Part shown: piece after piece, positions 50,019 to 64,000 of the stretch
Position numbering within the stretch: position 1 is the first letter of the stretch
Layout: each line of letters opens with the position of its first letter
Assembly (NCBI GenBank): GCA_902613615.1
Contig: CACMHQ010000001.1
Location: 76,567 to 140,566 of the forward strand
Reading direction: 5' to 3'
DNA from: an uncultured Candidatus Actinomarina sp.
GTDB taxonomy: Bacteria > Actinomycetota > Acidimicrobiia > Actinomarinales > Actinomarinaceae
DNA length: 64,000 nucleotides
The notes under the pieces: model-generated
What the model was told of the DNA's origin: nothing
Databases searched by the model: none
What the model saw: only the letters and a program-made list of their open reading frames with translations
Translations under genes and position numbers: made by a program

Positions 50019-50020
50019 AT

Positions 50021-50935
50021 ATGTCAGATGTTAATTTTGAAAACAGAGTAGCGATTGTTACAGGTGCCGGGAATGGATTAGGTAAAGCATATGCACTAGA
50101 GCTTGGTAAAAGAGGTGCAAAAGTTGTAGTAAACGACCTCGGAGGCGCTGTTGATGGTTCTGGTTCAGGTAATTCGCCAGCAGATGATGTTGTTAATGAA
50201 ATTATCAAAAATGGTGGTGAAGCTGTTGCAAATTATGATTCTGTTGCTTCAAAAGATGGTGGAGAGTCAATAGTCCAAACTGCAGTAGATAATTTTGGAA
50301 CTGTTGACGCTGTAATTAATAATGCCGGGATATTGAGAGATAGAAGTTTCGCAAATATGACAGAGGAAGAATTTTTGTTGATTATTGATGTACATCTAAA
50401 AGGAACGTTTTATGTGACTCATCCTGCATTTAAAATAATGAAGGAAAACAATTATGGAAGAATTGTAAATGTTGCCTCTCCATCGGGTTTGTTTGGAAAT
50501 TTTGGTCAAGCAAATTATGGTGCAGCAAAAATGGGTATAGTTGGTCTAACTAATGTCTTAGCGATTGAAGGAGCTAAATACAATATTAAGGTTAATGTAA
50601 TTGCTCCTACTGCTTACACAAGAATGACGGAAGGACTTATACCTGAAGATGTTGGTAAATTCATGACTCCTGAGCTTGTCACTCCATTAGTTACGTATCT
50701 TGCATCTGAAGCATGTGAACCAACCCACGAAATATATGGTGTTGCCGCAGGTAGGTTTGCAAGAATTGGGATAATTACACATGAAGGTTATGTTAACCAA
50801 CAAGCAACAGCAGAAGACATAGCCAACAACATAGATGAGATAAGAACTATTACAGATGGAACTTATCCTTTAAGTAATGATGATGAAAATATGTTGATAA
50901 TGAAAGCTTTACAAGGAAATAGCTCTAACGAGTGA
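50021..50935 (+). CDS. SDR resembling the (R)-3-hydroxyacyl-CoA dehydrogenase domain of MFE-2
   Basis: VTGAGNGLGKAYALELGKRGAKVVVNDLGG...ADDVVNEI...GG.AVANYDSV and YGAAK match the MFE-2/HSD17B4 N-terminal domain pattern. Confidence 0.85.
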   Translation: MSDVNFENRVAIVTGAGNGLGKAYALELGKRGAKVVVNDLGGAVDGSGSGNSPADDVVNEIIKNGGEAVANYDSVASKDGGESIVQTAVDNFGTVDAVINNAGILRDRSFANMTEEEFLLIIDVHLKGTFYVTHPAFKIMKENNYGRIVNVASPSGLFGNFGQANYGAAKMGIVGLTNVLAIEGAKYNIKVNVIAPTAYTRMTEGLIPEDVGKFMTPELVTPLVTYLASEACEPTHEIYGVAAGRFARIGIITHEGYVNQQATAEDIANNIDEIRTITDGTYPLSNDDENMLIMKALQGNSSNE

Positions 50936-50952
50936 TCAGTGTATAATTTAAT

Positions 50953-52170
50953 ATGGCAAAAATTGAAACAAAACCAGCTGATGCGGAAGAGTTAGTTAAA
51001 GATAGACTCAAAGAATTAATTTCATTCAGAGAAGAAAATCAAGATATTAAAGATTTTTGGGGAAAACAATTTGATTTAGGTTTAGCTTGGGTTCATTTTC
51101 CAGAAGGCTCTGGTGGTTTAAACGTAAATCCAAAGTTTCAATTACTTGTTAATGAAACCCTTCGTAATGAAGGAATTTCAACCAGTAATCGGATAGCAAA
51201 TTTACTTGGTATTGGGATGGGCGCTCCAACAATTAAGGAATATGGTACTCAGGAGCAAATTGATAAATATCTAAGACCCATGTTCACTGCTGATGAAATC
51301 TGGTGTCAATTATTTTCTGAGCCAGGATCTGGTTCAGATTTAGCAAGCCTTTCAACAAAAGCAGTTGATGACGGTGATGGCTACATTGTTAATGGTCAAA
51401 AAGTTTGGACTACATTAGGTCACTTATCAAAATGGGGCTTACTTGTTACAAGAACAGATCCAGATGTTCCAAAGCACCGTGGGTTAACATTTTTTATAGT
51501 AGATATGGAATCAGAGGGAGTCGAAGTAAGGCCATTAAGACAAATTACAGGAGAAGCAGAGTTCAATGAAGTTTATTTTACGGATGTAAAAATCCCAAAA
51601 GAGAACGTTTTAGGAGAAGTGGGTGATGGCTGGAGAGTATCATTAGCAATATTGATGAATGAAAGAGTTGCTATAGGTGGTAACGTAAGACAAAGAGGAA
51701 GTGGAGCTCCTGGGCACCTTGTACAACTTTGGAAAGATCGCAACTTAGATGACCCTGTTGTCAAGGACAAACTTGTAGAGTTATGGATTCAACAAGAAGC
51801 TGTTCGCCTTACGAACATGAGAGCTTCTGAATTGAGAGAGAAGGGAACACCTGGTCCTGAAGGGTCTACTAGTAAGCTACACGAAGCTGAAATTAACAAA
51901 TCTTCATATGAATTTGGTATGGAAATGTTAGGAAATGATGGATTGTTATTTCCTAGAGGATATGAGTTATCTCAACCTGAATTAAATTTTGATAATGATT
52001 CTTATGGATTCACAGATACCCAAAGTTTATTTTTAAGATCTCGTGCTAACTCTATAGAAGGTGGTACATCTGAAATAATGAGAAATATCATTGCTGAGAG
52101 AGTTCTTGGTCTTCCTAGCGAACCTAAGCTAGATAAAGACAAGGCATGGAAAGATTTGCCTAGGTCCTAA
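50953..52170 (+). CDS. Acyl-CoA dehydrogenase
   Basis: SEPGSGSDLASL, GQKVWTT, C-terminal IEGGTSEIMRNIIAE. Confidence 0.9.
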   Translation: MAKIETKPADAEELVKDRLKELISFREENQDIKDFWGKQFDLGLAWVHFPEGSGGLNVNPKFQLLVNETLRNEGISTSNRIANLLGIGMGAPTIKEYGTQEQIDKYLRPMFTADEIWCQLFSEPGSGSDLASLSTKAVDDGDGYIVNGQKVWTTLGHLSKWGLLVTRTDPDVPKHRGLTFFIVDMESEGVEVRPLRQITGEAEFNEVYFTDVKIPKENVLGEVGDGWRVSLAILMNERVAIGGNVRQRGSGAPGHLVQLWKDRNLDDPVVKDKLVELWIQQEAVRLTNMRASELREKGTPGPEGSTSKLHEAEINKSSYEFGMEMLGNDGLLFPRGYELSQPELNFDNDSYGFTDTQSLFLRSRANSIEGGTSEIMRNIIAERVLGLPSEPKLDKDKAWKDLPRS

Positions 52171-52807: not shown

Positions 52808-53989
52808 TTATTTGATAATCGGATTGGCTAAATCCAAAGCTAAAGTTAGGGATTCCATTACTTTTTCTTTGCTATCTCCCTGTGAAAAAACAAAACCTAA
52901 ATATTTATCTCCAAAAGGTGGTTCTAAAAGATTTGAGTTTTCAGATACAGTAATCTCAACCCCAGAAACATTAGGTATACTTTCAAGTTCATTCTTATTG
53001 ATCGAGATAAATTTTCCCGATATTGGTGTTGGTATCATTAGTACCCCTACAAAATTACTGAGTAGATCAATACTCTTTAATTCATTATTTAAGAATGCGT
53101 GAAGTGCAATTTCTTCAAGTGAAGTTTTAAACAAACCAAAACTTAAGCATCTTGAACATAAACCACCAATCATTCTTGGATTTATCTCAATTATGAATAT
53201 TTCCTTATTATGTATTTTAAATTCAACGTGTACAGGTCCATTTTCAAGACCTAGTTTTTTACAAGCTTTTCCAATTAAATTAACTATTTCTTTTTGAGTT
53301 TTATCTGGTATTTCTGTTGGAGCAATATATATAGATTCTTCGAAATAAGGCTCTTTATAATTAATTGGCTTGTCAAATATAACTATTTTATTTAATTCAG
53401 AATTAATTAAATTTCCTTCTAATGCATACTCACTTCCATCGACAAATTCTTCGATAATTAAATCCTGATCTGAACAGTCTTGCATTAATTTTTCCACCTC
53501 AGCTTTGTTTTCTTGAAAACTTTCAACTTTTATAACACTTTTACTGGCTGTGCCATAAATAGGTTTTAACACAGAGGTTCCATTTTCATTAATAAATATC
53601 TCTATATCTTCAATTTTATTCACGATTGCATTTTGAATTTTTATTTCGGATATTGAATTAAATATGTTTCTTGATTCAAATTTGTTCATCGCAGTATTAA
53701 TTGATTTAGTGTTATTACCTTTAGCCTTCAGTAAATCTACGAGATATGCAGAAAATTTAAGAGCACTATGGTCTACTGGAAGTATATGAGTTACATCTTG
53801 AAGTTTTTCTTTTACATCATTCTCTAATTCCTCATCAAAACTATGAATTATTACTGTATCTGAGAATTGACCGGAAACCTGCTGGCTATCTGTAATTACT
53901 AAGAAATCAAGATCTAGTTTTTCAGCTGATGTAACAAAATCGTTTGATTTATAGCTATTTTCTGGAATAACAAGTAATAGTTTCTTCAT
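52808..53989 (-). CDS. ATP-grasp-domain ligase of unknown specificity
   Basis: ATP-grasp core: VLKPIYGTASKSV, IIEEFVDGSEYALEG, GPVHVEF...IIEINPRMIGG. Confidence 0.7.
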   Translation of the reverse strand: MKKLLLVIPENSYKSNDFVTSAEKLDLDFLVITDSQQVSGQFSDTVIIHSFDEELENDVKEKLQDVTHILPVDHSALKFSAYLVDLLKAKGNNTKSINTAMNKFESRNIFNSISEIKIQNAIVNKIEDIEIFINENGTSVLKPIYGTASKSVIKVESFQENKAEVEKLMQDCSDQDLIIEEFVDGSEYALEGNLINSELNKIVIFDKPINYKEPYFEESIYIAPTEIPDKTQKEIVNLIGKACKKLGLENGPVHVEFKIHNKEIFIIEINPRMIGGLCSRCLSFGLFKTSLEEIALHAFLNNELKSIDLLSNFVGVLMIPTPISGKFISINKNELESIPNVSGVEITVSENSNLLEPPFGDKYLGFVFSQGDSKEKVMESLTLALDLANPIIK

Positions 53990-54029: not shown

Positions 54030-54662
54030 ATGACTGACGAATTTAAATTCAATATTGGTGATACCGCCGTTTCTAAAATTCTTGAATTGAGAGAGCAGGA
54101 GCCAGGTGAAAAAGATTATGCCTTATTTCTGCAAATAGATGGTGTCCAAGGAAATCAATATACTTACGACTTAAGTTTCCTTGACTTAGATCAGGCAAGA
54201 CCAGATGATAAAAGAATAGAATTTGGCGAACTTTCCGTAGTCATTGCTAGTAAAGATGTTGATAATTTTAACGGAGCAAGCCTTGACATGTCAGACGATC
54301 CAGACGCTCCTGGATTGACAATGGATAACCCTAACACTCCAAGCCCAGCAATGTTTGGGAACCCTGAAGACATGCCTGAACTTACAGGTGAACTAGCAGA
54401 GAAAGTACAGACAGTTTTAGAGAGTCAGATAAATCCTGCAATAGCCTCCCACGGTGGTCAAGCAAGTCTTGTAGGAGTAGAAGGCCAAGATGTGTATCTT
54501 AGACTTGGTGGAGGTTGCCAAGGATGTGGTATGGCACAAGTAACTTTGACACAAGGTATTGAAAAGGCATTAAGAGATGCAGTACCGGAGATAGGTAATA
54601 TTATTGATGCAACTGATCACGCATCTGGTTCAAATCCTTATTTTGAATCTTCAAAAAAGTAA
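54030..54662 (+). CDS. NfuA-like Fe-S biogenesis protein (degenerate A-type N-domain plus Nfu C-domain)
   Basis: C-terminal INPAIASHGGQASLV...GGGCQGCGMAQVTL (CxxC). The N-terminal HesB/IscA-like fold lacks the Cys triad. Confidence 0.75.
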   Translation: MTDEFKFNIGDTAVSKILELREQEPGEKDYALFLQIDGVQGNQYTYDLSFLDLDQARPDDKRIEFGELSVVIASKDVDNFNGASLDMSDDPDAPGLTMDNPNTPSPAMFGNPEDMPELTGELAEKVQTVLESQINPAIASHGGQASLVGVEGQDVYLRLGGGCQGCGMAQVTLTQGIEKALRDAVPEIGNIIDATDHASGSNPYFESSKK

Positions 54663-55634
54663 TTAAAAGCTAATAACTGTTTTTCCTATATTTTTACGAG
54701 ATAAGAAATTTTCTAATGCAAGGGGAGTCTCTTCAATTGTATGAACATTTTTTGGCTCAATATTTAATTCACCTTTTTCAATAAAACTTAAGAGTTCTCC
54801 AAAATCTTCTGCCGTTTCTTCTGGTGAAGTTGTTGTCCATCGTCCCCACCACACTCCAACTATCGAAACACCTTTTACCAAAGTTAAATTAAGAGGTATC
54901 TTTGGAATGTTTCCATCTGTGAAACCAATTACAAGTAGCCTCCCATTCCAAGCTGTAGCCCTCAAAGCTTGCTCAGTGACATTACCACCAACTGGGTCCA
55001 TGACCACGTCAACACCCTTACCGTTAGTTAGTTCTTTTGTTGTTTCCTTTAAATCAACTTGGTCATATCGTATAATTTGATCTGCACCTAATGATTTTAC
55101 GTATTCCTCTTTTTCATCACTGCCAACTGCACATAGAGTCTTTACACCCATAACTTTTGCCAATTGGATAGTTGCAGTTCCAATTCCTCCTGCAGCACCA
55201 AGAACAAGTAAACTTTCACCGTTCTGTATATTTGCTCTTCTTTTTAATGCGTAATAACAAGTTCCGTAGTTTATAGGTAAGCTTGCCCCAGCATAGGAAT
55301 CAACTGCTTCAGATACCGGTATAACTAAACTTTTATGTACGCTTACAAATTCTGCAAAACCACCCATTGGAGGTAAAGCTATAACTTTTGTACCAATCTT
55401 AATTTCAACATCTTCTCCAATTCCTTCTACAATCCCACAAACTTCTGTTCCGGGTGTAAATGGTGGGTCCATAACAATCTGATATTTTCCTTGTACCATC
55501 AGAGCATCTGGAAAATTTACACCTGCAGCTTCAACTTTTATTAATACTTCATTTTTTTGGGGTTCTGAGATAGGATTATCTTGAATTTCAAGGAGATTAG
55601 GCTCACCAAGTGTTGTACAAACTACAGCTTTCAT
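54663..55634 (-). CDS. NADPH:quinone oxidoreductase-like MDR (zeta-crystallin type, no Zn ligands)
   Basis: AAGVNFPDALMVQGKY and the Rossmann LVLGAAGGIGTATIQLAK. Confidence 0.85.
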   Translation of the reverse strand: MKAVVCTTLGEPNLLEIQDNPISEPQKNEVLIKVEAAGVNFPDALMVQGKYQIVMDPPFTPGTEVCGIVEGIGEDVEIKIGTKVIALPPMGGFAEFVSVHKSLVIPVSEAVDSYAGASLPINYGTCYYALKRRANIQNGESLLVLGAAGGIGTATIQLAKVMGVKTLCAVGSDEKEEYVKSLGADQIIRYDQVDLKETTKELTNGKGVDVVMDPVGGNVTEQALRATAWNGRLLVIGFTDGNIPKIPLNLTLVKGVSIVGVWWGRWTTTSPEETAEDFGELLSFIEKGELNIEPKNVHTIEETPLALENFLSRKNIGKTVISF

Positions 55635-57088
55635 TACTCTTCTCTTTTAATGATTCCAGACAACTTTTTTGCAAAGTTCTTCTTTTCTTCAATATCAACT
55701 TTTCTTGAAATTTGGATTCTTTGTGCTTGAGGGGATCCAGCTCCATGCATAGACTCAGTTAAATAAGCTACAGCATTTCTTCCTAAAGTCATATTTTCTA
55801 TTAGTCTCAACATTTTGACACGATCTTCAGTATTAATATCTTCTTTACCCTTTAAGTATTTTTTTAGATTTGGGGACATGTCACTTTCGTGAATGTCAAT
55901 TCCCGAGGGCATTGAAGCAACCAATCCTCCTGCAAGATCTTGTGCCAATCTTCCAATTTCATATGTTTCTTTTGTTACATGTTGCTTACAAACATTTGCC
56001 AATAAATCGTCATTGATAAAGTTTCCACTTTTTGTTTCTTTTCCTTGTAATGATGAAGCAATTCCCGTCGCGTATATTGTTTCATTTAATTTATTCATCT
56101 CAACTAATTTTTCTCTGATATGCGATTTGTTTTCGACTCCATTGTATTCAGCAATGGTTGCAGCTGCTCCAATCATTACATCTCCAACTCCAGCTTTACA
56201 AACATAAGATCTTCTGTGATAGCAAGTAAATCGTTCAACCAACATTGCTGCAAAATCATATTCACCATTCATAAATATGTATTCATTAGGTATAAATACA
56301 TTGTCAAAAATTACCATTGCTTCCTGGCCAGCAAAGTACTTATTACCAACATCGTATTCACCAGGCTCCATACTTCTTGTGTCACATGATTGACGCCCAT
56401 AAATGTAAGTTATACCTTCAGATTCGATTGGTAGCGCTCCAACTATTGCATAATCTTTATCATCTTCTGTAAGTCTTAAAGTTGGCATGATGACCATCCA
56501 ATGGGAATTTAAACAACCTGTCTGGTGAGCTTTTGCTCCAGAAACGTAAACACCTTTTTTGTCTCGTTTCACAACTCTGAGATATAAATCTTGGTCTGCC
56601 TGTTGATGAGGTGGCTTTGATCTATCACCTTTGACGTCAGTCATTGCGCCCCCAATAACGAGATTGGATTCATGCATTTTTGTTAAGAAACTTATAAATT
56701 TTTTGTGATAATCAGTCTTGTATTTTTCATCAATTTCGTAAGTTACTGAATGAAGAGCGTTGAATGCATCCATACCAACACATCTTTGAAAACAAGTCCC
56801 AGTTAATTGTCCCAACTTTCTTTGCATTTGGTTTTGTAGATATAAATCTTGATTATTTTCAGCAATGTGTAAAAACCTATTAATTGGCTCATTGGTATAA
56901 GGAGATATTGCAGAAGCTAATTCAGGTTCTCTCTCAGCAAGAGCATAGGTCTCAGCCATTGCTTCTATGCTTGGCTTTATTATTGGATGTGTCAATGGAT
57001 CTTCTACAAGCTCACCCATTAAGTAGATTGTTAGGTTTCTGTTTTTAAGAGAATCTAGATAATCAGCTTTTGTATGAATTTTTTCCAT
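55634..57088 (-). CDS. abfD: 4-hydroxybutyryl-CoA dehydratase / vinylacetyl-CoA isomerase homologue
   Basis: Collinear with Clostridium aminobutyricum AbfD as I recall it: TCFQRCVGMDAFNA, GAMTD.KGDR, GRQSCDTR, ESMHGAGSPQAQRI. Cys99 and Cys103 sit at the identical positions, with His291 and Cys297 where the remaining cluster ligands are expected. Confidence 0.85.
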   Translation of the reverse strand: MEKIHTKADYLDSLKNRNLTIYLMGELVEDPLTHPIIKPSIEAMAETYALAEREPELASAISPYTNEPINRFLHIAENNQDLYLQNQMQRKLGQLTGTCFQRCVGMDAFNALHSVTYEIDEKYKTDYHKKFISFLTKMHESNLVIGGAMTDVKGDRSKPPHQQADQDLYLRVVKRDKKGVYVSGAKAHQTGCLNSHWMVIMPTLRLTEDDKDYAIVGALPIESEGITYIYGRQSCDTRSMEPGEYDVGNKYFAGQEAMVIFDNVFIPNEYIFMNGEYDFAAMLVERFTCYHRRSYVCKAGVGDVMIGAAATIAEYNGVENKSHIREKLVEMNKLNETIYATGIASSLQGKETKSGNFINDDLLANVCKQHVTKETYEIGRLAQDLAGGLVASMPSGIDIHESDMSPNLKKYLKGKEDINTEDRVKMLRLIENMTLGRNAVAYLTESMHGAGSPQAQRIQISRKVDIEEKKNFAKKLSGIIKREE

Positions 57089-57142
57089 ACAACATTATAA
57101 ATTGTAAGATTGTGATTTAAAATTTAGTTACAAATTTAAAAT

Positions 57143-58321
57143 TTAGATAACTTCAAATAAACCAGCTGCACCCATACCACCACCGACACACATAGTTACA
57201 ACTACGAATTTTGCGTTTCTTCTTTTACCCTCTATTAATGCATGCATCGTCATTCTTGCACCAGTCATTCCATAGGGATGGCCTATTGATATTGAACCAC
57301 CATTAACGTTATATATGCTGTTGTCAATACCAAGCTCATCTCTACAGTATAAAGTTTGAACAGCAAAGGCTTCATTTAGTTCCCAGAGGTCTATATCTTC
57401 AATTTTTAAGTTAAATTTGTTTAATAAATCTGGAACTGCGTATACAGGACCTATTCCCATTTCCTCTGGTGCTAATGCTGATACAGTCATACCTCTATAA
57501 TATCCAAGTGGTTCGAGGTTTCTTTTTTCTGCTTCACTTGCTTCCATTAAAACAACAGAAGCTGAACCATCTGATAATTGTGAAGCATTACCAGCTGTAA
57601 TGAACTTTCCTTCTCCATAAACTGGAGGAAGAGAGGATAAACCCTCTAAATTTGTTTCTGGTCTATTTCCCTCATCTTTTGTTAATTCAACCTTTTCATC
57701 AGTAACTTCCCCGGTTTCTTTATTTTTGACACTTTTTGTTGTAGTTGTTGAAATAATTTCGTCATCAAATTTGTTACCTTCTTGAGCAGCTGCAGTTCTT
57801 TGTTGACTTTGTAATGAATATTCATCCTGATATTCTCTTGTAATATTATATTTTTCAGCAACAAAATCAGCAGTTTCGATCATAGGCATATAAGCGTTAT
57901 CAGCAAGTTTTACCACATTTGGATCTGGAGCAAATCGCAATTCAGCAGTTTGAACCAACGATATAGATTCAACACCGCCTGCAACAACAACATTCATATT
58001 GTCTGTCATTATTTGTTTTGCACCAGTAGCAATTGCCATTAGGCCAGAAGAACATTGTCTATCTATTGTCATTCCTGGAACAGTAATTGGTAATCCTGCT
58101 GCGATTCCACTTAGTCTTCCAATGTTCAATGCTTGTGAACCTTGTTGTTGAGCACAACCCATAATGACATCTTCTATTTCATTTGGATCAACATTTGCTC
58201 TTTCAACAGCTTCTTTGATTGAATAAGAACCTAATGTAGGAGCATCTGTTTTGTTGTATGCTCCACGATAAGCTTTTCCAATAGGTGTTCTTGCTGCTGA
58301 TACTATTACTGCTTCTCTCAT
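57143..58321 (-). CDS. Acetyl-CoA C-acetyltransferase (thiolase II)
   Basis: Nucleophile [28 protein letters not shown]. Confidence 0.95.
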
Positions 58322-58338
58322 CTTTAGTCTTCTTTCTT

Positions 58339-58800
58339 CTATTCTGTAATTATAAATAAAGTTAAAGGCTCAACAATAGCTGCTGGTTTATCTTTACCCT
58401 CTATTTCAATTGTAGCAGTATGCTTCACCAACCATCTACCAGCTTTTTTATACTGGACATCTGATAAAACAAATCTCCCTCTAATCTTGCTATTTACTGG
58501 CACAGCTTCCATGAAACGAACTTTATCAAGTCCATAATTAATTGCCATTTGAATATTTTCTGGCATGACAGTGTTGTCGGCAGATAAATAAGTTATCATA
58601 CTCAATGTCAGGAATCCATGAGCTATTGTAGTTCCCCATGGAGTACTTTTAGCCATTTCTTCATCAACATGAATAAATTGATGATCGTTTGTACCTTCTG
58701 CAAATTGATTTATCCTATCTTGATTTATTTCGAACCAGTCTGAAACACCGACCTCTTGACCAATATATTTTTCCATTTCCTCTGCAGGTACAATCATCAT
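58339..58800 (-). CDS. MaoC-like (R)-specific enoyl-CoA hydratase
   Basis: 153-aa single hotdog with the hydratase-2-like box [13 protein letters not shown]...GTTIAHG. Confidence 0.8.
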
Positions 58801-59813
58801 GTTATCTCCTCTAATAAATTTTTATTCGCAGCTTTATTTGCAAACTTTATTGTACTGTCCTTAAATGATTCTATTTCATTTTCATTTGTTTTTCCATATG
58901 ATCCCATGGAATATCTTATGTAAACCCCCTCCATTATCATTGCATGTTTCCAATAAGATAACCTTGTGTAAAATTCAATATCTTTTAGATCTAGATTTGA
59001 GTTATTTAGATATAATTTAATTACATCCTCACGTGTGGGAAATCCGCCAGACAGGGTTGGAGAGTATATAAATGGTGAGTCTTTTTCTTTCTTTGTATTC
59101 CAAGATGCTATAACTGTTCCCATATCTGCAAGTGGATCTCCCAAAGTACAAAGTTCCCAATCCAGTACGGCTGCTACTTTGTTATCCTTTATTCGAACAT
59201 TATCTAATCTGTAATCTCCATGAACTATTCCAACAGTTTGTTGTGGAGGAATATAATCAAGAAGTAAATTAGTTGCACTTTCTAGTTCTTTTATTTCTCT
59301 CACTTTTTGAGATTGAAATTGTTTATTCCATCTGTTTATTTGTCTTACTACGTAATCCTCATGTTTTCCTAAATCACTTAATTCTGAACTTATAACATTA
59401 AAATTGTGTATTTCTGTAAGAGCTTTAATGAATGATTCTGTAATTGTTTTTTTCTGTGATTGGTCATAGCTTTCTGCCACTTTGTCGTTAGCTATCGTAT
59501 CACCCTCAATAAATTCCATAATATAAAAATCATCTGTAGATAACTCCTTCTTGTCATATAGATAGAATGGTTTTGGAACCCTTAAACCATTTTGATTTAA
59601 AACTTTCAATATTTTATATTCCCTACCCATATTGTGTGCAGATTCTAATTTGAGTCCAAATGGAGGCCGTCTTAATACAAATGTATTTGAATCATCAAAA
59701 ATTTTAAATGTAATATTTGATCTTCCTACTTTAAATTGTTCAAAGTTGAAATCTTCTGAAATATCTACAACTGTAGAAATATATTTCTTTAGTTTGTCGC
59801 TAAAAAAGTCCAT
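58797..59813 (-). CDS. APH-fold phosphotransferase of the ACAD10/11-N-terminal (LvaA-like) type
   Basis: GRSNITF...FVLRRPPFG...AHNMGREYKILKVL, catalytic HGDYRLDNV, DWELCTLGDPLAD. I prefer the ATG at 59813; the track starts at a TTG one codon upstream. Confidence 0.8.
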   Translation of the reverse strand: MDFFSDKLKKYISTVVDISEDFNFEQFKVGRSNITFKIFDDSNTFVLRRPPFGLKLESAHNMGREYKILKVLNQNGLRVPKPFYLYDKKELSTDDFYIMEFIEGDTIANDKVAESYDQSQKKTITESFIKALTEIHNFNVISSELSDLGKHEDYVVRQINRWNKQFQSQKVREIKELESATNLLLDYIPPQQTVGIVHGDYRLDNVRIKDNKVAAVLDWELCTLGDPLADMGTVIASWNTKKEKDSPFIYSPTLSGGFPTREDVIKLYLNNSNLDLKDIEFYTRLSYWKHAMIMEGVYIRYSMGSYGKTNENEIESFKDSTIKFANKAANKNLLEEIT

Positions 59814-59870
59814 CAAACAACATATTAATGAAAGTTTTTTGGTTCAGAAGTTTAAATTGATACAATAAGA

Positions 59871-61079
59871 ATGATGGATTTTAATTTCTCTAAAGAATCA
59901 CTTGAATTACAAGATAAGCTAAAAACCTTTTTCGCTGACCATATTTATCCAAATGAGGAGCTCTATGAGAAGGCAATTATTGACTCAGGAGATCCATTGC
60001 ATATTCCAGAAATATTAAATGAGCTTAAATCAAAAGCTAAAAGTGAAAATTTGTGGAATTTATTTCTACCTGATAAGGAATATGGATATGGATTATCAAA
60101 TGTTGACTATGCACCATTAGCTGAGATAACAGGTCATAATTGGTGGGCTCCTGAAGTATTTAATTGCTCTGCCCCTGATACAGGAAATATGGAAATTTTA
60201 GCCGAGTTTGGAACAGCAGAGCAAAAAAAACAATGGCTTGAACCACTTCTTGAAGGAGAAATAAGATCATGCTTTGCAATGACTGAGCCAAATGTAGCTT
60301 CCTCAGATGCTACAAACATAGGAAGTTCAATTGTCAGTGACGGTGACAATTATGTAATTAATGGTCGTAAATGGTGGACTTCAAATGCAATAAATCCAAA
60401 TGCAAAAATATGTATTTTTATGGGTGTGACAAACCCAGATAGTCCTCCATACCAAAGGCAGAGCCAAGTATTAGTTCCTATGGATAGCGAGGGACTATCG
60501 ATAATCAGACCAATGCAAGTATTTGGATATGATGATGGATACACAGGACATCCAGAGCTTTTATTTGAAAATGTCGTTGTTCCAAAATCTAACATCATTG
60601 GGGGAGAAGGAATGGGATTTAAAATAGCTCAAGCTAGGCTTGGGCCTGGAAGAATACATCATTGTATGAGGGCTATCGGAATGGCAGAGAGAGCATTATC
60701 TCTTATGATCGACCGATCACTTGAAAGAGAAACATTTGGTCAAAAATTAGCTGAACAAGGTGTTATTCAAGATTGGATTGCTCGCTCAAGAATAAAAATA
60801 GAGGAAGCAAGATTACTAACTTTGAAAACTGCATGGCTAATCGATACAGTTGGTAAAGAAGAAGCAAAAATAGAAATCTCATCTATAAAAGTATCTGTTG
60901 TTGAGGCTGCTTCTTACGTCATTGACAAAGCTATACAAACGTTTGGCGCAATGGGGTTATCCCAAGATACTCCACTAGCTAGGATGTCTGCAGGAGCTCG
61001 TGTATTAAGAATTGCAGATGGACCAGATGAAGTTCATTTAAGATCAATAGCAAGAAGAGAAATTAATAAACATAGATAA
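59871..61079 (+). CDS. Acyl-CoA dehydrogenase of the ACAD10/11 (FadE2/LvaC-like) type
   Basis: Family-specific SCFAMTEPNVASSDATNI, GRKWWTSNA, RIADGPDEVH at the C-terminus. Confidence 0.88.
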   Translation: MMDFNFSKESLELQDKLKTFFADHIYPNEELYEKAIIDSGDPLHIPEILNELKSKAKSENLWNLFLPDKEYGYGLSNVDYAPLAEITGHNWWAPEVFNCSAPDTGNMEILAEFGTAEQKKQWLEPLLEGEIRSCFAMTEPNVASSDATNIGSSIVSDGDNYVINGRKWWTSNAINPNAKICIFMGVTNPDSPPYQRQSQVLVPMDSEGLSIIRPMQVFGYDDGYTGHPELLFENVVVPKSNIIGGEGMGFKIAQARLGPGRIHHCMRAIGMAERALSLMIDRSLERETFGQKLAEQGVIQDWIARSRIKIEEARLLTLKTAWLIDTVGKEEAKIEISSIKVSVVEAASYVIDKAIQTFGAMGLSQDTPLARMSAGARVLRIADGPDEVHLRSIARREINKHR

Positions 61080-61081
61080 TT

Positions 61082-61948
61082 ATGGAAAAAGTTGCAGTTA
61101 TCGGTGGTGGACAAATGGGAAGTCAGATTGCTGCTTTATCAGCAATGTCAGGTCATGAAACAAGTATCTTTGATAGCAATAAAGAATATTTAGATAGCAA
61201 ATTAGTTTTTACCAAAGAGAATATAGAAAATTTAGTTTCTAAAGACTTGATAAAAAAAGAAAGCTTGGATAATTTTAACCAAAATCTTAAAGTTTATGAT
61301 TCACTTGAAACGGTAGTAGATGATAAAACATTTGTAATTGAAGCTGTAGTTGAAAGATTTGATGTAAAAAAGGAAATTTTTTCAACGATTTCAAAAATAC
61401 TCGATGAGGATGTTGTTCTTGCAACAAACAGTTCATTTATAGCTGCATCAGAAATTGCACAACATTGTAAACATCCCGAGAGATTTATAAATATGCACTT
61501 CTTTTACCCTCCATTAAGAATGGATCTCATTGAAATTTCATTTCCAGAATCCACTAGCAAAGAAATAGTTGATAGGACTAAAGAACTGAGCAAATTGATG
61601 GGAAGAACAGTTGTAACTTTAAATAAAGAAACACCAGGCTTTATTGTAAACAGGATGTTAGGTGCGTTAGTTGATGAGGCCTACGAATTATATGACGAAG
61701 GAATAGCCGACTTCAAAGATATAGACCTAGCAATTAAGAAAGGATTGAACCATCCACTAGGACCATTTGAATTGACTGATTACTCAGGCTTGGATATTAG
61801 TTATTATTCAAAACTTAAAATTTATAATGAAACAAAAAACCCAAAAGATAAACCCAAAAAATTTCTAGAAGAAAAAGTTAAAGATGGGAAATTAGGTGTA
61901 AAAACAGGAGAAGGTTTTTACAATTATGACAAACCTTCAAAGTCTTGA
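61082..61948 (+). CDS. 3-hydroxyacyl-CoA dehydrogenase (Hbd/HADH type)
   Basis: VAVIGGGQMGSQIA Rossmann, NSS...HFFYPP, PGFIVNRML, and a C-terminal domain with GP..L.D..GLD. Confidence 0.88.
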   Translation: MEKVAVIGGGQMGSQIAALSAMSGHETSIFDSNKEYLDSKLVFTKENIENLVSKDLIKKESLDNFNQNLKVYDSLETVVDDKTFVIEAVVERFDVKKEIFSTISKILDEDVVLATNSSFIAASEIAQHCKHPERFINMHFFYPPLRMDLIEISFPESTSKEIVDRTKELSKLMGRTVVTLNKETPGFIVNRMLGALVDEAYELYDEGIADFKDIDLAIKKGLNHPLGPFELTDYSGLDISYYSKLKIYNETKNPKDKPKKFLEEKVKDGKLGVKTGEGFYNYDKPSKS

Positions 61949-62343
61949 TCTTTAAGATTAAAAAAGAATTCTCTTTCTGCTTTAATTTTTAAAATTATTC
62001 TTTCAGATTGTATTTCAAAAGGGTATGGTTTGTTCCAATATTTCTGAGATAGATCATTAATATTTTTTAAAGCGTCTTCACCTGTAATTTCACCCACTAC
62101 CTCTCCTCTAATTTCCACAAATTTAAACTCATTATCATGCTTCCAGATCATAACATTGACTCTTGGATCATCTTTTACATTTAAATATTTTCTACGGTGG
62201 ATCTCTGTATTTATTAAAATATTTTCACCATCTGTATCAACCCACATTACGTGTGTTTGAGGGGCACCACTTTTAAAGAGCGTCGTTAAAGTTGCATAAT
62301 TCGGCTCTTTTGCCATTGCAATCGTTTTTTTATCTAAACCCAT
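61924..62343 (-). CDS. PPOX-class (pyridoxamine-5-phosphate-oxidase-fold) protein, possibly F420-dependent
   Basis: 139 aa, split-barrel pattern YATLTTL..SGAPQTHVMWV...ILINT....RKYLNVKDDPRV. Confidence 0.65.
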   Translation of the reverse strand: MGLDKKTIAMAKEPNYATLTTLFKSGAPQTHVMWVDTDGENILINTEIHRRKYLNVKDDPRVNVMIWKHDNEFKFVEIRGEVVGEITGEDALKNINDLSQKYWNKPYPFEIQSERIILKIKAEREFFFNLKDQDFEGLS

Positions 62344-62362
62344 ATAATTATCATAGAATATT

Positions 62363-62818
62363 ATGAAAGTTGTTTTGCAAAGAGTTAAATCAGCATCAGT
62401 GAAAGTTGATAACTCTTTAATTTCAGAAATTAGCGGTGGCTATCTTCTTTTATGGTGTATTGAAAAAGGTGATACTCCAAAAGATATTGAAACTCTAACA
62501 AACAAGATTATTAATTTGAGAATATTTCCTGACGAACAAGGAAAAATGAATAAATCAATAATTGATGCTAATGGAGAAATACTTTTAGTAAGCCAATTTA
62601 CATTAAGTGGAAATATTCAAAAAGGAAATAGACCATCATTTATAAATTCTCAAGATCCTGAGATTGCAAAAAAAATGATTGATGATGTTGCTGAGATATT
62701 TTCTGACCGATTAACCGTTAAACAAGGTATCTTTGGAGCTTTAATGGAAGTTTCACTTATTAACGATGGTCCTTTAACAATGTTTATTGAATCAAGAGAT
62801 GGAAAAATTCAAAGTTAA
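62363..62818 (+). CDS. dtd: D-aminoacyl-tRNA deacylase
   Basis: MKVVLQRV..ASV, VSQFTL, GPLT near the C-terminus. Confidence 0.92.
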   Translation: MKVVLQRVKSASVKVDNSLISEISGGYLLLWCIEKGDTPKDIETLTNKIINLRIFPDEQGKMNKSIIDANGEILLVSQFTLSGNIQKGNRPSFINSQDPEIAKKMIDDVAEIFSDRLTVKQGIFGALMEVSLINDGPLTMFIESRDGKIQS

Positions 62819-63243
62819 GCAGATTGTAACTTTATATTTTTCTTTCCTTCAGCTTCACTAAGTTTTTTATCCAAATAATATTCTTCACCAGCCCAAAGAT
62901 GTAATCCAAGACCAACTTTCATAGCACATCTTTTGAATGCATCTGATTCAGCATGCTTAGCATTCATGCCGTCGCTTCCTTGATCGTGTTCAACATCTCC
63001 AATTGATGTTATGGTTACTGATTTGCCATCAATTTGTGTTGTTAGTTTGCCAAAGCAACCAACTACTTTTCCACTATTATCTTGTCTAATTAATTGAACA
63101 ACTTCCCAATTAAAAGGCCCACATACCTCTAAAAGTCTTTGAGTAATGACAGAATGAGGAATATAGTTTCCAAATTTACCTTTTGGAGCGGGCTTAATCC
63201 ACTCATCTGGAAATTGTCTTGATAGTTCATATAATTGATTCAT
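62815..63243 (-). CDS. Rad52/Sak-like single-strand annealing protein (phage-type recombinase)
   Basis: YIPHSVITQRLLEVCGPFNWEV plus AKHAESDAFKRCAMKVGLGLHLW match the Rad52-family pattern (YI...VI..LN..FG..W; K.A.TDALKRA...FG.G..LY) as I recall it. Confidence 0.5.
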   Translation of the reverse strand: MNQLYELSRQFPDEWIKPAPKGKFGNYIPHSVITQRLLEVCGPFNWEVVQLIRQDNSGKVVGCFGKLTTQIDGKSVTITSIGDVEHDQGSDGMNAKHAESDAFKRCAMKVGLGLHLWAGEEYYLDKKLSEAEGKKNIKLQSA

Positions 63244-63803
63244 TATTTCCTTTCTTTATGACCTAGCTCTTTTGCCCACTTTGGAGCTGTACTGTTGTTT
63301 GTATTTATACTTTTTAAGTCAGCTTTTTCTTTCCATTCTTTATATAAAAAAGTATCACGAATCATTTCGGGATTAATATTCTTAGAATTTGAAAAAGCAT
63401 CAAGACCCTTTAGTTTAGGAACAAAGGTTTGTCCAAGTATTGCAAGTAGAGATTCAACTAGCTCTTCATTGTTATCTGATTTTTCAATAATCCACTCAAT
63501 AAATTTTCTTAAATCTTGAACTTTCCAACTATAAGATTTATTAAATACAAATACTTCATCACCAAGCCTTACAGGTCCGTTTTCTTCGACATTTTTTGCA
63601 ATATTTTGATCATTAAAAGACTTAATATTTGTACTTGCTTTTTTTACAGTTGAGCTAGTATTTCTAGCTATCCAAAGGAACTCAATATCTTTTGTTTTGG
63701 AAAGTTCCTCACCATATTCAGTAACAGTAATATCAAAGTCATCACCATCCTGATATGTTATCTCTTTTGTTAAAGATAATATTTCATCTAAATTATTACT
63801 CAT
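63243..63803 (-). CDS. Hypothetical protein (possibly phage-derived)
   Basis: I take the start at the ATG at 63803, which has AGGAG 6 nt upstream; the track's longer ORF has no Shine-Dalgarno. 1-nt overlap with the Rad52-like gene. No motif recognised. Confidence 0.4.
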   Translation of the reverse strand: MSNNLDEILSLTKEITYQDGDDFDITVTEYGEELSKTKDIEFLWIARNTSSTVKKASTNIKSFNDQNIAKNVEENGPVRLGDEVFVFNKSYSWKVQDLRKFIEWIIEKSDNNEELVESLLAILGQTFVPKLKGLDAFSNSKNINPEMIRDTFLYKEWKEKADLKSINTNNSTAPKWAKELGHKERK

Positions 63804-64000
63804 ATGTACTCCTAAACTAAGCGGCTTTTCTATAGTCTTCATGACATCTACAGCTGTCACTATGTTGGTAGCAAACAATCACTGCTTCCAACCCGCATGA
63901 TTTAAGAATATCTTCAATTTTGTTATTTTTCATAAAAGAAATAATAGAAAACGGATACGACAAAAAATATAAAAAAACATACAACAAGTAATTTTTTAGA

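Follow-up and report, generated by a model that had tools for sequence, protein, structure and literature searches.

Side-by-side genes for two predicted routes of 4-hydroxyacyl-CoA hydroxyl removal in Candidatus Actinomarina, with a second occurrence in marine Bacteroidota

We analyzed a 64-kb window, meaning the whole stretch of DNA under study, from Candidatus Actinomarina, an abundant ocean bacterium with a tiny genome. A cluster of seven genes in this window is best read, on a balance tipping modestly in its favour, as an accessory cluster for the beta-oxidation of hydroxylated acyl-CoAs, holding two solutions to the C4 hydroxyl that blocks beta-oxidation. In the first route AbfD (FAD and [4Fe-4S]) would dehydrate 4-hydroxybutyryl-CoA to crotonyl-CoA without ATP. 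In the second route a stand-alone kinase of the LvaA/ACAD10-11 type would phosphorylate the 4-hydroxyl of a 4-hydroxyacyl-CoA and a divergently encoded acyl-CoA dehydrogenase (ACAD) with an HCMR motif and an Asp base would eliminate the phosphate to yield the 2-enoyl-CoA. The sequence-only reading of this DNA had already noticed the two systems side by side; this observation stands, its interpretation only in part. A description of the combined arrangement was not found in the literature searched, in line with that reading.

The ORF listing of the window contains all seven reading frames where they had been placed. The kinase frame extends over 58797–59816 of the minus strand, and the ATG at 59813 gives a protein of 338 amino acids, a length matching that of its relatives. 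The coordinates bear out the overlaps of 4 nt (kinase/MaoC) and 1 nt (AbfD/QOR) and the 57-bp spacer, and leave same-strand gaps of 17 and 54 bp inside the cluster. From the QOR to the 3-hydroxyacyl-CoA dehydrogenase gene the Pfam domains are ADH_N/ADH_zinc_N, HpaB_N+HpaB, Thiolase_N/C, MaoC_dehydratas, APH, Acyl-CoA_dh_N/M/1 and 3HCDH_N/3HCDH, and together with NCBIfam and PDB searches and the motifs described below they confirm all seven family assignments, including the specific AbfD and ACAD10/11 plus APH-kinase identities. [quoted passage not shown] The same scan, performing at chance level, gave a promoter-like match in the gap between thiolase and AbfD, and some Actinomarina relatives have a cytochrome c gene at this place, so that AbfD-QOR may be a transcription unit of its own. 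The arrangement suggests a minus-strand unit kinase-MaoC-thiolase-(AbfD-QOR), with ACAD and 3-hydroxyacyl-CoA dehydrogenase presumably expressed divergently across the 57 bp.

The AbfD protein (4-hydroxybutyryl-CoA dehydratase/vinylacetyl-CoA isomerase; 55634–57088, minus strand) is 66% identical to the Nitrosopumilus maritimus enzyme (PDB 6vjr, E = 6.7e-219) and 53% identical to the Clostridium aminobutyricum enzyme (1u8v, E = 2.2e-161). In the alignment no variation is seen at C99, C103, H291 and C297, which bind the Fe-S cluster, or at R90, Q101, T190, E256, Y295, K298 and E445, and both Fe-S ligands and catalytic residues are identical to those of the two enzymes. All four tunnel-closing residues defined for the oxygen-tolerant archaeal enzyme (bioRxiv 10.1101/2020.02.05.935528) are also present, T98, L73 and R437/N438 corresponding to T102, L77 and R441/N442 of N. 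maritimus. Judged by these residues the protein is a genuine 4-hydroxybutyryl-CoA dehydratase of the oxygen-tolerant type, and the matching activity is predicted. Its context is heterotrophic and lipid-catabolic, in contrast to CO2 fixation in the archaeal 3-hydroxypropionate/4-hydroxybutyrate cycle and GABA fermentation in C. aminobutyricum. Whereas an ADP-forming-type acyl-CoA synthetase recurs beside AbfD in loci of the Nitrosopumilales type, the window has no adjacent 4-hydroxybutyryl-CoA synthetase, and its AbfD gene differs from those of N. maritimus and C. aminobutyricum in being coupled to a QOR-type reductase.

The kinase (58797–59813, minus strand) is the first gene of its unit and has the APH fold of the LvaA/ACAD10-ACAD11 kinase-domain family. 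It matches the kinase domain of mouse ACAD11 with E = 2e-39 and the structures 9o56 and 3dxp with E = 1e-47 and 7e-39, and contains the beta3 Arg (LRR, position 47), HGDYRLDN (position 198) and DWE (position 218). Its partner, the ACAD-fold enzyme encoded divergently at 59871–61079 (plus strand), shares 53% identity with mouse ACAD11 over the ACAD domain (E = 1.4e-129; ordinary ACADs about 1e-40). The residues that define phosphate-eliminating ACADs of the ACAD10/11 type (PMC12440821) are all found, namely R256, R261, H264-C-M-R267 and Asp384 within ADGPDEVH. Kinase and ACAD thus carry the motifs which define the LvaA/LvaC-ACAD10/11 phospho-elimination system, and we predict them to be a 4-hydroxyacyl-CoA 4-kinase and a 4-phosphoacyl-CoA phosphate-eliminating enzyme, respectively. 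With the lvaABCDE genes of Pseudomonas putida (levulinate) the window shares the stand-alone APH-fold kinase and phosphate-eliminating ACAD-fold enzyme, an acyl-CoA ligase encoded nearby and, as predicted here, a 4-hydroxyacyl-CoA substrate. However, nothing like the small LvaB subunit was identified, the window has neither an LvaD-type 4-oxoacyl-CoA reductase assignment nor a regulator, the ligase is FadD11-like instead of the short-chain LvaE, kinase and ACAD are transcribed divergently, and AbfD, QOR, MaoC, thiolase and 3-hydroxyacyl-CoA dehydrogenase are additionally present. Mammalian ACAD10/ACAD11, which are fused proteins, share with the window proteins the catalytic Asp, HCMR motif and upstream Arg of the ACAD as well as the HxD...N and DWE motifs of the kinase; the window, however, encodes separate polypeptides, has no HAD domain and reads HGDYR in place of HGDFK in the kinase catalytic loop.

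Both AbfD and the ACADs use FAD for a redox-neutral gamma-elimination, and hhalign detects homology between them (probability 90.6%, E = 1.3e-6). They are distant homologues, and to call the two chemistries unrelated, as had been done, was an overstatement.

A 2026 preprint (PMC13596139) reports in vitro phosphorylation of chimyl alcohol, an alkylglycerol kinase activity, by several prokaryotic proteins homologous to the kinase domain of ACAD10, and 9o56, the top structural match of the window kinase, is probably the C. thermarum protein of that study. The kinase could then be a 1-O-alkylglycerol kinase of ether-lipid salvage, and the cluster would be left with a single route for removing a gamma-hydroxyl. 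We consider this highly improbable: the partner ACAD, both here and in a marine Bacteroidota SAG (locus L060), combines an Asp catalytic base with the R...HCMR motif for phosphate binding, a motif for which ether-lipid salvage has no use, the kinase gene is translationally coupled to that of an enoyl-CoA hydratase, and both domains of ACAD10 could be replaced by Burkholderia pseudomallei homologues when 4-hydroxyhexanoyl-CoA was the substrate (PMC11342911).

The remaining genes of the cluster had been taken to supply a hydratase, a dehydrogenase and a thiolase leading to acetyl-CoA. The thiolase (acetyl-CoA C-acyltransferase or 3-ketoacyl-CoA thiolase; 57143–58321, minus strand; Thiolase_N, Thiolase_C) exceeds the cut-off of TIGR01930 with 423 bits and is 62–64% identical to the thiolase of MaoC-SDR-thiolase-QOR operons adjoining AbfD in two Gammaproteobacteria (L014 and L019). 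The MaoC protein (58339–58800, minus strand) has the R-specific hydratase Rv0130 as its top PDB match (2c2i, E = 2.6e-33), and homologues of it adjoin AbfD in 7 of 76 genomes and 8 of 80 metagenome loci of other organisms. The adjoining dehydrogenase (61082–61948, plus strand, 2 nt 3′ of the ACAD gene) belongs to the S-specific 3HCDH/HAD family and reaches 218–241 bits with NCBIfam 3-hydroxyacyl- and 3-hydroxybutyryl-CoA dehydrogenase models, each under cut-off. As a trio these enzymes are therefore stereochemically mismatched. A fitting dehydrogenase is encoded 8 kb away, the SDR at 50021–50935 (plus strand), a probable extension of the cluster that resembles the yeast (3R)-hydroxyacyl-CoA dehydrogenase (2et6, E = 1.1e-144) and rat HSD17B4 (E = 8e-84). 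Its homologues (49–52% identity) stand between MaoC and thiolase in L014 and L019, and SDR-MaoC-AbfD is the commonest bacterial arrangement around AbfD. By family membership it is this SDR, and not the 3HCDH protein, that is the stereochemical partner of MaoC. Both halves of peroxisomal MFE-2/HSD17B4, the (3R)-hydroxyacyl-CoA dehydrogenase and the MaoC/hydratase-2-type domain, are thus present, although split into separate proteins encoded 8 kb apart and lacking an SCP2 domain. A crotonase was found nowhere in the window.

The gene whose start overlaps the AbfD stop codes for a zinc-free MDR/QOR-type NAD(P)H ene-reductase (54663–55634, minus strand; ADH_N, ADH_zinc_N). Its top NCBIfam match is the PIG3 quinone oxidoreductase family (244 bits, under cut-off), and 4eye, an uncharacterised mycobacterial oxidoreductase, heads its PDB matches before quinone reductases and FAS/PKS enoyl-reductase domains; homologues of 43–44% identity adjoin AbfD in L014 and L019. 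Convergent with the QOR/AbfD genes and abutting them is a gene for an NfuA-like Fe-S cluster carrier (54030–54662, plus strand; NifU and Fe-S_biosyn; NfuA 111 bits, under cut-off), an adjacency conserved in the Actinomarina loci only. Possibly this carrier supports the [4Fe-4S] cluster of AbfD. Together with two unrelated genes (TPK and ATP-grasp) it separates the seven genes from an operon of ligase, SDR and ACAD on the plus strand. Like the SDR, the other two members of this operon are probable extensions of the cluster: a FadD11-like AMP-forming fatty-acid-CoA ligase (48090–50018; FadD11 371 bits, under cut-off, followed by long-chain-fatty-acid-CoA ligase models) and a PimC-like ACAD (50953–52170; Pfam ACAD domains; pimC_large 211 bits, under cut-off). 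All Actinomarina loci have the ligase at the syntenic position, and a homologue with 29% identity lies upstream of the L060 operon; homologues of the PimC-like ACAD (35–37% identity) come after the kinase in L060 and L084–L089.

This ligase is the only activating enzyme found; short-chain ligase, CoA-transferase, 4-hydroxybutyrate dehydrogenase, succinic-semialdehyde dehydrogenase and PHA synthase are all absent from the 27–64 kb part of the window. Judging from this gene content, hydroxylated fatty acids are likelier substrates than free 4-hydroxybutyrate, and the earlier proposal of free 4-hydroxybutyrate or 4-hydroxyvalerate is not supported. The same absences, the CoA-transferase, the two dehydrogenases and the synthase in particular, bear on whether the cluster could run in the biosynthetic direction, with thiolase, R-specific SDR, MaoC and QOR-type enoyl reductase as a reverse beta-oxidation set and AbfD hydrating crotonyl-CoA to 4-hydroxybutyryl-CoA, for instance toward succinate or a storage polymer. 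AbfD catalyses a reversible reaction, an aerobic host equipped with the N. maritimus enzyme formed 4-hydroxybutyryl-CoA from crotonyl-CoA (PMC13288912), and the parts of the reverse cycle are there, down to the MDR ene-reductase. However, the neighbours are catabolic (ligase and ACADs in the window, TonB-dependent receptors in L014 and L060), and the irreversible kinase/ACAD route working in the opposite direction would close a futile cycle. We give the biosynthetic direction very little credence.

Conservation of the adjacency in related genomes had been set beforehand as a test of the linkage, and it holds within the genus. Four Actinomarina species-level genomes and additional metagenome contigs keep the layout, with AbfD 84–100% and the kinase 63–97% identical to the window proteins. 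Since the flanking genes are syntenic as well, this conservation by itself adds little. A survey for co-occurrence beyond the genus showed that the linkage recurs, but is rare: AbfD is paired with kinase and ACAD in 6 of 156 non-Actinomarina AbfD loci (1 of 76 genomes, 5 of 80 metagenome loci), all from one marine Bacteroidota lineage (L060 and contigs L084–L087 and L089). The sampled genomes with AbfD overwhelmingly lack the pairing, and the two routes are therefore clearly independent of each other in most organisms. In the six loci ACAD11-type ACAD, AbfD and kinase are immediate neighbours, with AbfD directly between the other two and its stop abutting the kinase start. This arrangement has been kept although the kinases have diverged to 53% identity across the lineage. 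The gene order differs from that in Actinomarina and the kinase and ACAD come from other sublineages; the L060 proteins are 45% (ACAD) and 32% (kinase) identical to those of the window, whose ACAD is nearer to mouse ACAD11 (53%). Somewhat more distant relatives of these loci have (SDR-)MaoC-AbfD alone, from which we infer that the kinase/ACAD pair was recruited into an AbfD operon. Order and divergence indicate that the pairing was assembled independently in Actinomarina and in marine Bacteroidota. Ligase, SDR, MaoC and PimC-like ACAD are accessory families common to both.

Could the adjacency nevertheless be a coincidence in a very compact genome, given that lipid genes are frequent neighbours, with an AbfD/QOR/MaoC/thiolase module for 4-hydroxybutyrate lying uncoupled beside a kinase/ACAD/3HCDH module for 4-hydroxyacyl-CoAs? 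Besides the 150 of 156 loci without the pair and the genus-wide flanking synteny, the cytochrome c gene that splits thiolase from AbfD in some Actinomarina would fit this view. Aerobic Bacteroidota and Gammaproteobacteria moreover have uncharacterised modules of AbfD, MaoC and MFE-2-type SDR (plus thiolase and QOR), drawn from the same five families with 43–64% identity to the window and, in L014 and L019, with the order MaoC...thiolase...QOR as in the window. Kinase and HCMR-type ACAD are missing from these modules, and the SDR has stayed inside the operon, which in L014 is headed by a TonB-dependent receptor. We nevertheless judge a coincidence rather unlikely in view of the independent, tightly kept Bacteroidota assembly and of the window kinase, which is translationally coupled to MaoC and lies on the same strand as AbfD. 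With four Actinomarina genomes and a second origin in Bacteroidota the co-location is beyond chance, and the second assembly argues for a real though rare functional link between the two systems.

This link might be one of back-up, both routes converting 4-hydroxybutyryl-CoA to crotonyl-CoA, with the ATP-free AbfD serving when iron is at hand and oxidative stress is low and the ATP-costly but iron-free kinase/ACAD pair serving in bright, iron-poor surface water. Zhang et al. reportedly detected 4-phosphobutyryl-CoA in mammalian tissue in 2009. AbfD needs its [4Fe-4S] cluster, the related N. maritimus enzyme was only moderately oxygen tolerant in vivo and apparently inactivated at high aeration (PMC13288912), the AbfD-QOR genes have that of the NfuA-like carrier as a direct neighbour, and the host is epipelagic (PMC7771536). 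However, productive C4 turnover by the kinase/ACAD route was not found in the literature searched, the ACAD10 kinase prefers a secondary alcohol in R configuration, that of 4-hydroxyhexanoyl-CoA (PMC11342911), whereas the alcohol of 4-hydroxybutyrate is primary, the ligase belongs with those for fatty acids, and the NfuA adjacency, confined to Actinomarina, may be plain synteny. A shared C4 substrate is, in our opinion, improbable.

We rather favour a division of labour in the breakdown of hydroxylated fatty acids. Rashan et al. suggest that hydroxyls at even carbons lead to 4-hydroxy acids on chain shortening (PMC12440821). Secondary mid-chain hydroxyls at even positions would accordingly arrive at C4 and be handled by the kinase/ACAD pair, while in even chains a terminal (omega) hydroxyl would end up in 4-hydroxybutyryl-CoA, the substrate of AbfD, so that a fatty acid hydroxylated both mid-chain and at the omega position would need both enzymes in sequence. 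Activation would probably proceed via the FadD11-like ligase at 48 kb, the AbfD-coupled QOR-like protein would act as ene-reductase, and the R-specific line of MaoC and the SDR at 50 kb plus the S-specific 3-hydroxyacyl-CoA dehydrogenase would deliver the products to the thiolase. The same pairing in two unrelated marine lineages points to an undescribed breakdown pathway for hydroxylated lipids.

A mechanical ORF listing reproduced the seven open reading frames of the cluster (54663-61948) at the coordinates that the sequence-only reading had assigned to them, and a profile-HMM check with Pfam and NCBIfam confirmed the proposed family of each one. On the minus strand lie the genes for the QOR-like reductase (54663-55634), the 4-hydroxybutyryl-CoA dehydratase AbfD (55634-57088), the thiolase (57143-58321), the MaoC hydratase (58339-58800) and the kinase (58797-59813), and on the plus strand those for the acyl-CoA dehydrogenase (ACAD, 59871-61079) and the 3-hydroxyacyl-CoA dehydrogenase (61082-61948). 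According to these coordinates the kinase and MaoC genes overlap by 4 nt and the AbfD and QOR genes by 1 nt, and the divergent spacer measures 57 bp. At the kinase a TTG is also open one codon upstream, but it is the ATG at 59813 that yields the 338-aa form of the relatives. A promoter/terminator scan gave 31 promoter-like sites with 34 expected and 3 terminator-like sites with 4.5 expected. Such a scan is uninformative in DNA of 33% GC, and operon boundaries were therefore taken from spacing alone. Convergent with the 3-hydroxyacyl-CoA dehydrogenase gene is a PNPOx-fold ORF (61924-62343, minus strand) with a sub-threshold match to the F420-dependent TIGR03618 family; the two share 25 nt at the 3′ end of the dehydrogenase gene.

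Pfam placed AbfD no further than the HpaB superfamily. Comparison with solved structures gave full-length similarity to the 4-hydroxybutyryl-CoA dehydratase of Nitrosopumilus maritimus (6vjr, E = 6.7e-219) and a match to the Clostridium aminobutyricum enzyme (1u8v, E = 2.2e-161). The best match to a true HpaB hydroxylase reached only 1.5e-30, so that AbfD is cleanly separated from the HpaB monooxygenases. Its [4Fe-4S] ligands C99, C103, H291 and C297 (three Cys and one His; C99, C103, H292 and C299 in the C. aminobutyricum reference) are invariant in our alignments A1 and A2, and the catalytic-site columns T190, E256, Y295, E445, K298, R90 and Q101 are invariant as well. The roles of T194, E260, Y299 and E449 have been described in a structural study of the archaeal enzyme, which ascribes the oxygen tolerance of the N. 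maritimus protein to T102, L77, R441 and N442 closing tunnels behind the cluster; the counterparts in the anaerobe are S98, A73, A447 and S448 (bioRxiv 10.1101/2020.02.05.935528). At the four aligned positions the window AbfD has T98, L73, R437 and N438, in all four cases as in N. maritimus. From these residues AbfD is predicted to be a 4-hydroxybutyryl-CoA dehydratase of the oxygen-tolerant type, which would answer the most evident argument against finding a radical Fe-S enzyme in an aerobe of the surface ocean. A neofunctionalised AbfD acting on longer chains is unsupported, since all active-site columns are invariant, including those of the marine Bacteroidota single-cell-genome locus L060.

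The ACAD matched the ACAD domain of mouse ACAD11 with E = 1.4e-129 (53% identical) as against about 1e-40 for conventional ACADs. Rashan et al. (PMC12440821) give an Asp as catalytic base and a phosphate-binding R...HCMR motif as features specific to ACAD10, ACAD11 and LvaC. The Asp is present within ADGPDEVH at residue 382, aligned with mouse LADGPDEVH (D753 of ACAD11; Glu in the usual ACADs), and the PDB entry of the 'A*' mutant has N at this position. The phosphate-binding motif reads RLGPGRIHHCMR (residues 256-267; mouse counterparts R626, H634 and R637). This ACAD is paired with an APH-fold kinase, the two genes being divergent and 57 bp apart in the window and separated only by AbfD in L060. 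The kinase matched the kinase domain of ACAD11 (E = 2e-39) and also the bacterial homologues 9o56 and 3dxp. The motifs of the fold, defined in PMC13596139 as an HxDxK...N loop, a DWE metal-binding motif and a beta3 Arg, are found as LRR (47), HGDYRLDN (198), with Arg in place of the loop Lys, and DWE (218). An alkylglycerol kinase, the role taken from that study, is in our opinion a very improbable identity for this protein. Conservation extends to the Arg at the position of mouse R176, which contacts CoA, and the alkylglycerol-kinase study (PMC13596139) proposes a CoA site too; as both readings invoke such a site, this Arg was dropped as a discriminator between a 4-hydroxyacyl-CoA kinase and an alkylglycerol kinase.

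The two dehydration chemistries had been regarded as unrelated in the sequence-only reading. A profile-profile comparison corrects this, as it detected homology between AbfD and the ACADs (probability 90.6%, E = 1.3e-6, about 200 columns). Both types use FAD transiently in a net redox-neutral gamma-elimination (PMC11342911, PMC13288912, PMC12440821). The difference lies in the activation of the leaving group, which is achieved by an Fe-S Lewis acid and radical chemistry in AbfD and by ATP-dependent phosphorylation in the kinase/ACAD route. Adjacent to the AbfD-QOR genes and convergent with them is a gene for an NfuA-like Fe-S cluster carrier (54030-54662, plus strand), which meets the QOR stop codon with zero intergenic bases; this adjacency is kept in Actinomarina and was not seen in other phyla. 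The NfuA-like protein might help to maintain the AbfD cluster. Its position, along with the only moderate oxygen tolerance of the archaeal AbfD in vivo (PMC13288912), would fit the idea that both routes serve the same C4 substrate and back each other up depending on iron or oxygen, an explanation which we consider clearly unlikely.

The adjacency of the genes is kept in related genomes, as the seven-gene layout is present in four of four recovered Actinomarina species representatives and in metagenome contigs. A genome-collection scan (best 80 of about 600 or more matches) assigned the window to Candidatus Actinomarina, with SAG AG-913-F10 as the nearest species representative. Compared with the window, AbfD is 84-100% and the kinase 63-97% identical in the Actinomarina loci. 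The flanking genes are syntenic too, and conservation of the layout within Actinomarina is therefore weak evidence for function. One Actinomarina sublineage has a cytochrome c gene of 153 aa (PF00034/PF13442) between thiolase and AbfD (L001:9457-9918 and L002:172-633), where the window has a 54-bp AT-rich gap (57089-57142) containing a promoter-like match. On this evidence AbfD-QOR may form a unit of its own. Elsewhere in the region an ATP-grasp gene (52808-53989, minus strand) lies between two lipid operons in the window and in its closest relative L004 and is missing in the Actinomarina loci L001, L006 and L007, in which the distance between NfuA and the PimC-like ACAD is about 1.3 kb versus 2.5 kb. 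The gene is flexible, whereas synteny holds in the rest of the region. Two small ORFs (62815-63878, minus strand) had no Pfam match at E = 1e-5 in a direct scan. The first shows weak or faint precomputed Rad52/Rad22 matches in relatives, and in L001 and L003 their counterparts are near a PDDEXK/Cas4-like nuclease. They may be what is left of a recombination event or a mobile element in this streamlined genome.

The matches from a homologue search were all near-identical variants from Actinomarina and covered no distant contexts. AbfD loci of relatives were surveyed by tblastn and motifs, the genome and the metagenome scan each covering the best 80 of about 600 or more matches. Among the matches listed, AbfD identity falls straight to 72% or less outside Actinomarina, and the clade is scattered over Planctomycetota, Bacteroidota, Gammaproteobacteria, Acidobacteriota, Anaerolineae, Bradyrhizobium and ammonia-oxidising archaea, its commonest bacterial neighbours being an SDR and a MaoC hydratase. 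In two gammaproteobacterial loci (L014 and L019) a MaoC-SDR-thiolase-QOR operon adjoins AbfD, its products being 43-64% identical to the window proteins; in L014 (12429-18772, GC 59%) this operon is headed by a TonB-dependent receptor and converges on AbfD. The thiolases of both loci are 62-64% identical to that of Actinomarina with its 33% GC, and this similarity across phyla suggests that the AbfD module may move between them by horizontal transfer. In seven Acidobacteriota/Cytophagales genomes (Pyrinomonadaceae, Emticicia, Runella; L013, L016, L022, L023, L025, L030 and L031, e.g., L031:7794-9083) an HMG-CoA reductase gene lies within about 6 kb of AbfD, a context unrelated to that of the window. 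In another Bacteroidota locus (L033:4596-9934) the genes immediately upstream of AbfD are those for a beta-keto acid cleavage enzyme (BKACE), a first SDR, a tandem double ACAD of 797 aa, a second SDR and MaoC.

Co-occurrence of abfD with the kinase-ACAD pair holds for Actinomarina and for one marine Bacteroidota lineage, and it is not general: of the 76 loci outside Actinomarina among the best 80 of about 600 or more matches (42 with at least 5 kb on both sides, 22 archaeal according to their record titles), only 1 has a kinase and an HCMR-motif ACAD next to AbfD. This one locus, L060, is a co-directional operon of three SDRs, MaoC, crotonase, an ACAD11-type ACAD, AbfD, the kinase and two PimC/PimD-like ACADs, with a TonB-dependent receptor and a ligase upstream. 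AbfD is placed directly between ACAD and kinase, with its stop codon immediately adjoining the start of the kinase gene. A metagenome scan from the L060 AbfD (best 80 of about 600 or more matches) recovered the ACAD-AbfD-kinase-ACAD core in five more marine contigs, with AbfD 82-92% and the kinase only 53-78% identical to L060. Slightly more distant relatives have (SDR-)MaoC-AbfD only, and the remaining metagenome loci among the matches listed showed no pairing except for a partial kinase-like match at a contig edge without an HCMR-type ACAD. A transfer of the cluster between Actinomarina and Bacteroidota is ruled out, because ACAD and kinase of L060 are just 45% and 32% identical to those of the window, whose ACAD resembles mouse ACAD11 more than it does that of L060. 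This divergence points to a pairing assembled twice from different sublineages by recruitment of a kinase/ACAD pair into an AbfD operon. The best evidence for a functional rather than an accidental linkage is the putative second, independent assembly, and a coincidental adjacency of the AbfD and kinase/ACAD genes appears rather unlikely to us. Just as clearly, the linkage is rare, an elaboration specific to certain lineages.

With respect to the surrounding enzymes, QOR is a zinc-free MDR ene-reductase and groups among the C=C-reducing MDRs. MaoC matched Rv0130 (PDB 2c2i, E = 2.6e-33), an R-specific hydratase, and the 3HCDH family is S-specific. The hydratase, adjacent dehydrogenase and thiolase that had been read as one set leading to acetyl-CoA are thus mispaired. 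The match to MaoC is instead the SDR at 50021-50935, an MFE-2-type (3R)-hydroxyacyl-CoA dehydrogenase (E = 1.1e-144 to 2et6 and 8e-84 to 1gz6), so that an R-specific MFE-2-type beta-oxidation pair (SDR plus MaoC/hydratase-2) is present in the window. Homologues of the two are adjacent in L014, L019, L033 and L060. The 64-kb window showed no crotonase as partner for the S-specific dehydrogenase. The ligase-SDR-ACAD operon (48090-52170), all three families of which recur in the L060 cluster, probably belongs to the functional unit. Free 4-hydroxybutyrate, proposed earlier as a substrate, is unlikely: in the part of the window from 27 to 64 kb there is no 4HB dehydrogenase, succinic-semialdehyde dehydrogenase, CoA-transferase, short-chain ligase or regulator, and the ligase (48090-50018, plus strand) is FadD11-like. 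Both observations favour 4-hydroxybutyryl-CoA arising through chain-shortening of longer hydroxyacyl-CoAs over an origin from free 4-hydroxybutyrate. The ligase protein is only 76% identical to that of L004, the closest genome, with neighbouring genes at 97-100%; divergence or recombination may be concentrated locally at this substrate-activating enzyme.

The Pseudomonas putida lva operon has the small partner protein LvaB, the 4-oxoacyl-CoA reductase LvaD and the short-chain ligase LvaE. The window ligase in contrast is FadD11-like, and judged by the spacing there is no room for a small ORF such as LvaB between the kinase and its neighbours. By analogy the region would work like the lva core, yet it is not an lva operon. 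[quoted passage not shown] Operation of the cluster in the reverse, biosynthetic direction is feasible according to PMC13288912, and we give it hardly any weight.

Building on the established enzyme identities, diagnostic residues, physical arrangement and phylogenetic pattern, we infer that the cluster would make hydroxylated acyl chains accessible to beta-oxidation. Even-carbon hydroxyls would reach C4 as secondary alcohols, as suggested by Rashan et al. (PMC12440821), and would be removed by kinase and ACAD; the ACAD10 kinase prefers the R secondary alcohol (PMC11342911). C4 processing by the kinase route is not settled by the Rashan, Paquay and GHB papers. If the hydroxyl is at the terminus of an even chain, it would end up in 4-hydroxybutyryl-CoA, to be removed by AbfD. 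Odd-carbon hydroxyls would yield 3-hydroxyacyl-CoAs of either configuration, which would explain why R- and S-specific dehydrogenases are both present. An acid hydroxylated both mid-chain and at the omega end would depend on the two gamma-eliminases one after the other. We therefore put forward, tentatively and as a possibility we ourselves hold with some doubt, a hitherto unrecognised bacterial pathway for the complete beta-oxidation of multiply hydroxylated fatty acids, with algal or cutin-type mid-chain-plus-omega-hydroxy acids as candidate substrates, in which two related ACAD-fold gamma-eliminases, one a phospho-eliminase driven by ATP and the other a radical Fe-S dehydratase tolerant of oxygen, might act sequentially on one chain.

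4-Hydroxybutyryl-CoA dehydratase has mostly been discussed for anaerobic fermenters and archaeal CO2 fixation, and to our knowledge its role in aerobic heterotrophs is essentially unstudied. Among the matches listed in our survey the clade of the oxygen-tolerant type occurs in such organisms, namely Actinomarina, Bacteroidota, Planctomycetota, Acidobacteriota, Gammaproteobacteria and Bradyrhizobium. The kinase/ACAD route was recognised in mammals only in 2024-2025, and we know of no bacterial ecology for it beyond levulinate use. That the combined arrangement is undescribed agrees with full-text searches, which found no 4-hydroxybutyryl-CoA dehydratase together with ACAD10/11, lvaA or 4-phosphoacyl-CoA, nothing for the dehydratase with phosphotransferase, acyl-CoA dehydrogenase and gene cluster, and nothing for the dehydratase with hydroxy fatty acids. 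The Actinomarinales genome paper makes no mention of fatty acids, acyl-CoA, lipids or hydroxybutyrate (PMC7771536). Every enzyme type is known; new are the combination, its independent recurrence and the implied catabolic context of an oxygen-tolerant AbfD in abundant aerobic plankton. For engineering the conversion of 4-hydroxy acids under air, the cluster could offer one option that depends on iron and another that depends on ATP. Two routes joined in one cluster twice independently in marine plankton would give a concrete lead to the natural substrates of both, which are probably hydroxylated lipids in marine organic matter. If true, this would be the first defined catabolic role of 4-hydroxybutyryl-CoA dehydratase in aerobic bacteria, and in organisms that are among the most abundant plankton of the surface ocean.
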